Assembly: GCF_030013595.1 (NCBI RefSeq)
Contig: NZ_CP122768.1
Length of the DNA stretch: 64,000 nt
Strand: one strand, 5' to 3'
DNA from: Escherichia coli
GTDB lineage: Bacteria > Pseudomonadota > Gammaproteobacteria > Enterobacterales > Enterobacteriaceae
Below, piece after piece: positions 21,001 to 24,000 of this stretch (its first letter is position 1; the number at the start of each line of letters is the position of its first letter). The position numbers were made by a program.

Positions 21001-24000
21001 TTAAATGACATCAATTATTTTATGACTTATCAGGGCGAGTCCATTAACCTTATTTCACTGGATCACGAATACCCAGAGTCCTGTCTTCAAAATGACACAA
21101 ACACATATTTATTAGGAAGAGTAATATTTCTGTATAACTCAATGATTTATAAGTTCATAAACTGTCAGGAACATGAAACCAATAACATTCACTCAGCTAT
21201 GATAAATAACCTATTACAGGAAGTTGATATAGCCCTTGGTAAAATAAATGACATTATAGACAGCAGAAACATATCAGCCCCCCATGAACTGGCAAATATT
21301 CTTACCCGCGAAAAAATACTTACAACACGGGAAAAAAAAGGAAACCTGATAAGCCTGTTTGATGGATTCACTTTATTCCATTGTGTTGGAATGATAACCT
21401 TTCTTATCCATTATCTCAGAACACCTGAAGAAAAAGTTGAAAATATATTTATGTTATATGGTGCAGATAAAAACAATAAACTACGCAGAAGACTGATTTA
21501 TGACGCACTAGGAATAATTCAGTCTCAGCAGGAGTGAAGAGTTAAACAGGCAAATTATTTTTTATAAAAAGGGGATTGTTAAGTAATCCCCTGTTAATCA
21601 AAATACGCTTTCCTGACGATCTGATAATTATCAGCTCAATACATTTGACATAAAAGCGGTTTCTTAATTACTACTGCTACGATCACATATCAAATCATGA
21701 TCGTACAATATACATTTTCACTATTATTTATTCACAATTTGAGACATCACATAATCCGCCCATGCCTGCATCATCGGTACACGCTGCTCCAGTAGATCAG
21801 TACGATGATATGCCGCCTCAACCTTATTTTTCAGCGTATGAGCGAGCGCCCTTTCCGCCAGATCCCGCGAATACCCCTGTTCGCTACACCAGTCCCTGAA
21901 TGTTGAGCGAAAACCATGTGCCGTGGCAACTCGCCCCGGAATGTCACTGCCGGCTTTCTTTTTACGCAGAAAACTTGTCAACACCATATCGGAAAGGATC
22001 TGCTGCTTTCTGGGTGAAGGGAACACCAGTTCATCATGCAGGCCACGTATATTTTCCAGAATGTAAATAGCCTGCCGGGATAAAGGAACACGATGCTGTA
22101 TCCTGGCTTTCATTCTTTCTGCAGGTATAGTCCATACCCGCTTATGAAAATCAATTTCAGCCCAGCGCATTCCCCTGGCTTCGCCCGAGCGAGTTGCTGT
22201 AAGTATCACCATTAATAACAGTGCGCGGGTAACATTATAAGGTTCATCGGTATACACACTGGTCGCCACAAAAAGCGGTAACTGCCTCCAGGGCATTGCG
22301 GGTTGGTGTTCATCACGTCCTCTTGTCTGCTGAGGAAGCAAATGGTCAACCACATCAACAGGATTTGCTACACAAAAACCGTGCGCCCATCCCCACTGCA
22401 TAACAACATGAATGCGCTGTTTAACCCGGCTTGCCGTTTCTGACAAGGTTAACCAGACTGGACGCAGTGTTTCTGCCACGTCCGCAGCCGTAATCGAATC
22501 CAGCGTTTTTGCTCCCAGTTGAGGAAACGCGTAATTCTCAAGCGTCGATAACCACTGCCTTACATGCTTTGGATTTTCCCATCCAGGAGACAGTTCTGCA
22601 TGTACACGCCTGGCTGCATCGGCAAATGTTGGGATAGCGACTTTCTCAGATTCAGCCTTTTTAATCTCCAGAGGATCATCACCTGCAGCAAGTTGCTCTC
22701 GCATTATCCGGGCAGTACGTGCAGCTTCAGCAATACTGACCTCTGGGTAAGTTCCCAATCCAGCATTACGTCTTTTTTGTGTCACCGGACTTACATAACG
22801 AAAAACCCATTTCCCCCGCCCCTTTACTGAAGAAGGATGAAGGGTCAGTCCGGTAATTCCCCCATGGGGCAATGGTTTGTCATCAGGTTTGATATGTCTT
22901 GCTTTCGTATCCGTCAATACTGCCATACGCTAATTCCCGTCACTCTGGTATGCCATCCAGTATGCCATTAGTCTCTCGCTTCACTAAGAATACATTAGAT
23001 AATATCGGACAACAAAAAGTGTAATACATTGTTTATAATGAAATTATATAACACCCCTGGATTAAGTCAGATTTATTTCAGGCGGTCCCCCTCACCGCCA
23101 TATTTAAAGAAAAGCTCGTACGAAAGTGCGAGCTTTTTTTTCGCATATTGCACTCCAGGGGGGATGAGAAGCCCCGACCGGGGTTCGACAACTGGCGCAG
23201 CCAGTTGGACAGACCACGAACGCAGTGAGTGGGCTGCCCGCAGGGCGAGCGAAGCGAGTCAATCCCCCCTCACCGCCATATTCAAAGAAGAGCTCGTACG
23301 AAAGTACGAGTTTTTTTTCGCATTTTATCTGCCTGTACGGCAGTGAACGGTATAAAAATCGAGTTTTTCTTTCGGTTGGCTTTCTAAGCTGCCTGTACGG
23401 CAGTGAACTCAAATACTACACGTCTAGCCCGTTGTTAATAAAGCAAAACCATCTCATTTTCCTGCTCCCCCCCCTTTTTTATCCTTACCTTCCCGCAGCA
23501 CTAATTATCAACAAATTACCATCATCATCAAAAAAAGGGTCTGAACCTCCTCCACCCCATAAACAAAAAGTCCGTAACCTCTTTCGAGATTACGGACTTC
23601 ACCAACCTACCTAACAATTAGATTAATGCGCTGCTTCCGCCTTGTGCTTTTGTGCACTCTGGAATCCGTAAGTCAGCTCATTTTTCTCTTTATCCAGCGC
23701 GACGGTGACCTGACCGCCGTCCACCAGCGAACCAAACAGCAATTCGTTGGCGAGCGGTTTTTTCAGGTTGTCCTGGATGACACGCGCCATCGGACGTGCG
23801 CCCATTGCCCGGTCGTAACCTTTCTCGGCCAGCCAGTTACGCGCTTCCTGGCTCACTTCCAGAGAAACACCTTTCTGATCCAGCTGAACCTGCAACTCGA
23901 CGATGAATTTATCCACTACCTGATGGATCACGTCGGTGGAGAGATGATCGAACCAGATAATGTTGTCGAGACGGTTACGAAACTCCGGCGTAAAGATCTT

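Follow-up and report, generated by a model that had tools for sequence, protein, structure and literature searches.

The window analysed here is a stretch of 64,000 nucleotides (64 kb) of Escherichia coli DNA (contig NZ_CP122768.1). The region of interest is bounded on one side by the repeated serW-type 3' end and terminator and on the other by the end of clpA (its 3' end), which is where an earlier note on the sequence had correctly placed a pair of palindromic 20-mers. The features are, in order of position:

21724-22926, minus strand: tyrosine integrase, left of the array
23265-23318: serW-type 3' end and terminator beside R2
23285..23318, plus strand: serW-type terminator hairpin, which abuts R2 and bounds the array downstream; positions 23310..23293 also resemble a terminator when read on the minus strand
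23348..23321, minus strand: R2, terminal degenerate repeat, GTTCACTGCCGTACAGGCAG followed by ATAAAATG, with the 20-nt hairpin part intact
23380..23349, minus strand: single spacer of 32 nt between R1 and R2, in crRNA sense GCCAACCGAAAGAAAAACTCGATTTTTATACC
23388..23329, minus strand: 60-nt mature crRNA predicted from the repeat anatomy if Cas6f were supplied, with an 8-nt 5' handle CUUAGAAA, the 32-nt spacer and a 20-nt 3' hairpin
23408..23381, minus strand: R1, leader-proximal CRISPR repeat GTTCACTGCCGTACAGGCAGCTTAGAAA, a perfect type I-F (E. coli CRISPR4) repeat
23409..23566, minus strand: array leader, between the clpA terminator and R1
23504..23531, minus strand: candidate sigma-70-like promoter TTGATG-16-GATAAT from a consensus scan of the leader; weak (9/12 matches)
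23567..23600, minus strand: clpA intrinsic terminator, a 15-bp stem followed by a T-run, at the upstream boundary of the leader
23623-25914, minus strand: clpA open reading frame, with Clp_N, AAA_2 and ClpB_D2-small domains

Positions 1-23000 of the window are a genomic island with a urease cluster, a phosphoethanolamine transferase, IS elements, a gene for a 'TOTE conflict system' primase-domain protein, YfjI/DUF3987 genes and the tyrosine integrase. The island is 99.9% identical to islands of many STEC and ETEC strains, and in strain rl0044 the same island adjoins phoH, not clpA.

The 20-nt sequence CTGCCTGTACGGCAGTGAAC is present in two identical copies on the plus strand (23329-23348 and 23389-23408) that start 60 bp apart. 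Each copy holds the motif CTGCC-n5-GGCAG, which folds into a 5-bp stem with a 5-nt loop (-8.6 kcal/mol). The earlier note had correctly given the two copies, their 60-bp spacing and the inverted repeat, but the true repeat unit is longer: it is the 28-nt minus-strand sequence GTTCACTGCCGTACAGGCAGCTTAGAAA, whose first 20 nt correspond to the CTGCCTGTACGGCAGTGAAC copies. A search of the 64-kb window that tolerated up to 3 mismatches found no third copy of CTGCCTGTACGGCAGTGAAC, and 100 dinucleotide-preserving shuffles of the window gave no match. We suspected a type I-F repeat because of the 60-bp period and the sequence tttctaag upstream of the second CTGCCTGTACGGCAGTGAAC copy, and an Rfam scan then confirmed it: R1 matches CRISPR-DR4 over its full length (1-28) with 50.1 bits, for a gathering score of 35. 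Three cas-bearing strains, SF-088, 025542-1 and Escherichia sp. E1V33, have arrays whose internal repeats are exactly the R1 sequence. R2 scores 29.7 bits (E = 2e-4), under the cut-off of 35, and departs from the model only in its last 8 nt. The period of 60 is the sum of a 28-nt repeat and a 32-nt spacer, in the same register as in the multi-repeat arrays of SF-088, 025542-1 and E1V33. Read on the minus strand, the order is leader, R1, 32-nt spacer and degenerate R2, and with two repeats the array is of the smallest possible size.

In type I-F systems, Csy4/Cas6f binds the repeat hairpin in the transcript and cleaves it at the 3' base of the stem. When folded alone, R1 and R2 each gave the expected 5-bp hairpin. 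The minimum free energy fold of the whole 88-nt unit instead pairs R1 with R2, which we discounted since identical palindromes can always pair in this way. The suggestion that the 20-mers form a small structured RNA thus survives insofar as each copy is a CRISPR-repeat hairpin; the array itself had gone unrecognised, the strand was the wrong one, and the 28 + 32 = 60 period and the spacer, the part that holds the information, had been missed. In K-12 TG1, the stem of the terminal repeat (L001 2563-2590) carries a G-to-A change (GACAG) that abolishes the predicted hairpin (-1.4 kcal/mol, versus -8.6 kcal/mol for R2 in the window). Judged from these folding predictions, the orphan arrays of the window, with its terminal hairpin intact, and of K-12, where it is broken, may differ in whether Cas6f could yield a mature crRNA.

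Aligned with the leader of CRISPR4.1, the array next to clpA in SF-088, and with the leaders of K-12 and 7CC, the window leader differs at few positions. Positions 23381-23650, which contain R1, the leader and the clpA 3' end, are 92.6% identical to SF-088, and the leader of CRISPR4.2 has several blocks in common with the window leader. The promoter scan of the leader is not significant alone, with one site found and 0.6 expected in shuffles. Two convergent genes flank the array, which is situated past the terminator of each and some 200 bp from the stop codon of clpA. What identifies it as a type I-F array is the match to the repeat and hairpin model, the 28 + 32 period and the homologous leader; adjacent cognate cas genes, which are needed for a complete system and not for an array, are absent from the window.

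A two-repeat array occupies the same place in the cas-less strains K-12 TG1, 7CC, O157:H7 86-24 and ES3. The comparison with the K-12 region that the earlier note had proposed was made with TG1, where the array carries a spacer against cas1f. In SF-088 and 025542-1, the operon cas1f-cas3f-csy1-csy2-csy3-cas6f is located between serW and a longer clpA-proximal array, and the infA-serW interval holds another array. Searches of the 64-kb window by tblastn with the six SF-088 Cas proteins found no I-F cas genes, and when the whole SF-088 operon was compared with the window by blastn, only the spacer, repeats and terminator matched. Because there are no cas matches in the window, the array is, on the sequence of these 64 kb of the genome, an orphan; the I-F operon of E. 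coli has been described only at the clpA-infA locus (PMC3903273). On the serW side, cas-less strains can be aligned with cas-bearing ones through the T-run of the serW terminator and no further. A repeat relic beside the serW terminator, which would point to deletion by repeat-repeat recombination, was sought in cas-bearing strains and not found there. ARAGORN found no tRNA genes in the window; an intact serW is therefore expected outside it, presumably beyond the far end of the island.

The spacer GCCAACCGAAAGAAAAACTCGATTTTTATACC matches csy3. It is identical to the SF-088 gene at 30/32 positions (mismatches at positions 2 and 23), to the 025542-1 gene at 30/32 positions (mismatches at 26 and 29, leaving the seed intact), and to the csy3 genes of E. 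whittamii and Escherichia sp. E1V33 at 31/32 positions (mismatch at position 2). Directly 5' of the protospacer, on the spacer-sense strand, CC is present in 4/4 alleles; it is the I-F PAM of E. coli, which is given as GG on the target strand (PMC3506596). Swapping the spacer into csy3 of SF-088 and 025542-1 causes no amino-acid changes, the differences being synonymous third-codon ones, and the spacer base at each mismatch occurs in at least one of the other csy3 alleles. The spacer therefore resembles a copy of a natural csy3 allele and not a chance match, for which about 4e-12 would be expected in the cas operon at up to 2 mismatches. From this sequence evidence, the spacer is derived from csy3, a gene of the missing I-F operon. 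Among the alleles examined none gave a perfect match (32/32), and a scan of GTDB species representatives reached only 31/32. The commonest csy3 allele has the seed mismatch at position 2, which is expected to weaken direct interference. For comparison, the K-12 spacer matches cas1f at 30/32 positions with a CC PAM, and the O157 spacer, one base apart from that of K-12, also matches cas1f.

No credible phage or plasmid protospacer for the spacer was found in the phage and plasmid collections, where partial matches stayed at chance level. The lone full-length 'plasmid' match was rejected because a 4.9-Mb PLSDB record must be a chromosome. This record (NZ_CP134663.1, E. coli) was evidently filed as a plasmid and itself carries the two-repeat array.

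The exact spacer is present in 379 of 5,426 complete E. coli genomes. All 18 sampled carriers (18/18) showed a single match, and these genomes therefore have no csy3 copy. Roughly 240 genomes are estimated to carry csy3, about 200 of them with the SF-088-type allele and about 40 with the 025542-1-type allele, numbers that were extrapolated from an evenly spaced sample. The anti-csy3 spacer is rarer than the K-12/O157 anti-cas1f type, which is found as an exact K-12-type copy in 1,433 genomes (versus 379) and one base off in 888 more. The type of spacer, anti-csy3 or anti-cas1f, can serve as a simple lineage marker. In the RefSeq records sampled, every spacer match fell under no annotated feature and the two-repeat arrays were unannotated, which leaves a naive reader with an unexplained pair of palindromes. 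Recognition of the array accounts for the pair in full, and its value is mainly for annotation.

The array has been described before: it is CRISPR4.1-2, the type I-F orphan known from the clpA-infA ('CRISPR-III') locus. The I-F system between clpA and infA was named the CRISPR-III locus and its arrays CRISPR4.1 and CRISPR4.2 (PMC3903273), with which CRISPR3 and CRISPR4 have been equated (PMC8924505). As summarised in reviews, orphan I-F arrays are invariably present where cas-F is absent (PMC5972030, PMC8616872; also PMC3903273). The same reviews credit Almendros et al. (2016) with the findings that the spacers of these arrays match I-F cas genes almost invariably, that the arrays are constitutively expressed, and that they direct interference and primed adaptation against plasmids that carry all the I-F cas genes, which keeps the system from becoming established again (PMC5972030, PMC8616872). 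To the extent that these sources describe CRISPR4.1-2 (Diez-Villasenor 2010; Almendros et al., 2016; PMC3903273, PMC5972030, PMC8616872), the window array agrees with it in locus, 28-nt repeat, two-repeat/one-spacer form, conserved leader, absence of cas-F, and a cas-matching spacer with the correct PAM. Nothing of substance differs, although the window spacer targets csy3 and the K-12/O157 type targets cas1f. A search of the main texts of searchable papers did not find the exact spacer.

The complete I-F system of the E. coli B2 strains LF82, UTI89 and SF-088 consists of CRISPR4.1, cas1, cas2/3, csy1-3, cas6f, serW and CRISPR4.2. The window has in common with it an identical repeat, a closely similar leader, the clpA-adjacent position and the PAM, whereas it lacks all six cas genes and has one spacer, which would target the cell's own DNA were the operon there. 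The I-F arrays of Pseudomonas aeruginosa and Yersinia lie at other loci, work with resident cas operons and have spacers that correspond to phages or plasmids. Their repeats (Ypest; CRISPR-DR4; PMC3506596) share with the window the repeat family, the hairpin and the 60-bp periodicity.

The location at clpA-infA without cas-F in the window and a cas-matching spacer with an I-F PAM are the marks of an anti-cas orphan CRISPR4 array. We consider it very probable that the different parts of this reading hold together, i.e., that this is an orphan I-F array whose cas operon was lost, with a csy3-derived spacer and an anti-cas role. The array would then be what remained after loss of an I-F cas operon that once lay between serW and the array. 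Ordinary adaptation, dependent on the PAM, would have captured the spacer from csy3 of the same cell, an event that would have selected for, and probably driven, loss of the operon. By analogy with the literature on orphan arrays, the array would be transcribed constitutively, and incoming DNA with I-F cas genes would supply Cas6f and Csy proteins, by which the resident crRNA would be processed and loaded. Under this published 'anti-cas' scheme, Cas2/3 would next either degrade the element that had entered or prime the acquisition of new spacers from it. The 60-nt mature crRNA would be made only when the incoming operon supplies Cas6f. Following the seed rules for interference versus priming, which come from I-F Csy complexes, direct interference would be expected with the 025542-1-type csy3, which mismatches the spacer only outside the seed, at positions 26 and 29, and mainly priming against the B2-type allele, with its mismatch at seed position 2. 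The array thus probably marks a strain that has lost its I-F system and that, according to published work, resists regaining it.

A different account accepts the array as a genuine CRISPR remnant and sees it as functionless, in slow neutral decay between essential neighbours, with the csy3 match as the scar of an autoimmune event that killed the system. Such decay would agree with the absence of cas genes from the window, the single spacer, the stem-breaking mutation in the K-12 terminal repeat, the seed mismatch of the commonest csy3 allele and the non-significant promoter call. It is at odds with the small number of differences in leader and R1 across the aligned cas-less and cas-bearing strains, with the two intact hairpins in the window and with the occurrence of an identical 32-nt spacer in 379 genomes. 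Moreover, interference and priming by native orphan arrays have been shown experimentally, according to the reviews (PMC5972030, PMC8616872). We regard an inert fossil as unlikely.

We also considered whether the array is kept universally in cas-less E. coli for more than its anti-cas role. The transcript or hairpins could act independently of Cas proteins in the zone where the serW and clpA terminators converge, the array could be used in trans by mobile I-F machinery (plasmid-borne I-F systems or I-F3 transposons), or, in a modest version, the spacer types could set allele-specific barriers. Any such additional role is a long shot. If the modest version were true, the seed matches of anti-csy3 and anti-cas1f spacers would decide which I-F operon variants re-enter which lineages.

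The anti-cas orphan array also accounts for the palindromes better than the proposal in the earlier note of a pair of protein-binding sites on DNA, here taken as operators of a dimeric regulator for clpA or serW. Two identical, palindrome-bearing intergenic sites are what such operators would look like, but they lie downstream of both convergent genes, past both terminators and outside any promoter region, and they are part of a sequence with 28/28 identity to a CRISPR repeat. The same repeat occurs 38 times in tandem in E1V33 at 60-61-bp spacing, and the sequence between the copies varies by strain while the copies stay constant. The operator proposal is without support and effectively refuted. 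A dispersed repeat of the REP/BIME/ERIC kind or a small coding ORF has practically no chance of being correct, being refuted by copy number and the Rfam match: there are just two copies in 64 kb at up to 3 mismatches where such families have many, their position is conserved in K-12 TG1, 7CC, O157 86-24 and ES3, contrary to the alternative of a common dispersed repeat raised in the note, and although mechanical ORFs of 102-129 aa overlap the array region and one RefSeq genome has a hypothetical protein annotated here, none of the three overlapping ORFs has a Pfam match (0/3) and no CDS is annotated here in those four strains.

In the operons of the cas-bearing strains, a solitary repeat-like hairpin, GTAAACTGCCGTACAGGCAGCT, closely follows the 3' end of cas3f, in the gap before csy1, and is oriented opposite to both arrays. 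It lies outside the window, at 9344-9371 in SF-088 (L002) and at about 8579-8603 in 025542-1 (L005), and is thus kept in two operons whose csy3 genes are 5.5% different. In Escherichia sp. E1V33, a search for the exact stem gave no match. The hairpin may serve as a terminator or as a Cas6f-binding site, or it may be a relic.

On the serW side of the window array, the serW 3' end CTCACCGCCA with its terminator is directly repeated at 23091 and 23269, 178 bp apart (window 23087-23318), and the two CTCACCGCCA copies bracket an Rfam match to RtT (23144-23278, 48.5 bits, cut-off 45). In ES3, which is free of the island at this place, serW is followed by the CTCACCGCCA motif at intervals of 177-178 bp, in three copies counting the 3' end of serW itself, and an RtT sRNA is annotated. 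Since ES3 has these repeats without the island, at least part of what the earlier note had called an att remnant is native, a tandem repeat of RtT type that follows serW as in tyrT-like cases, and not only an integration scar. Two further Rfam matches in the window reach gathering level, RNA-OUT (the IS10 antisense RNA) at 61133-61202 with 97.3 bits and the 5' ureB small RNA at 1179-1457 with 86.5 bits.
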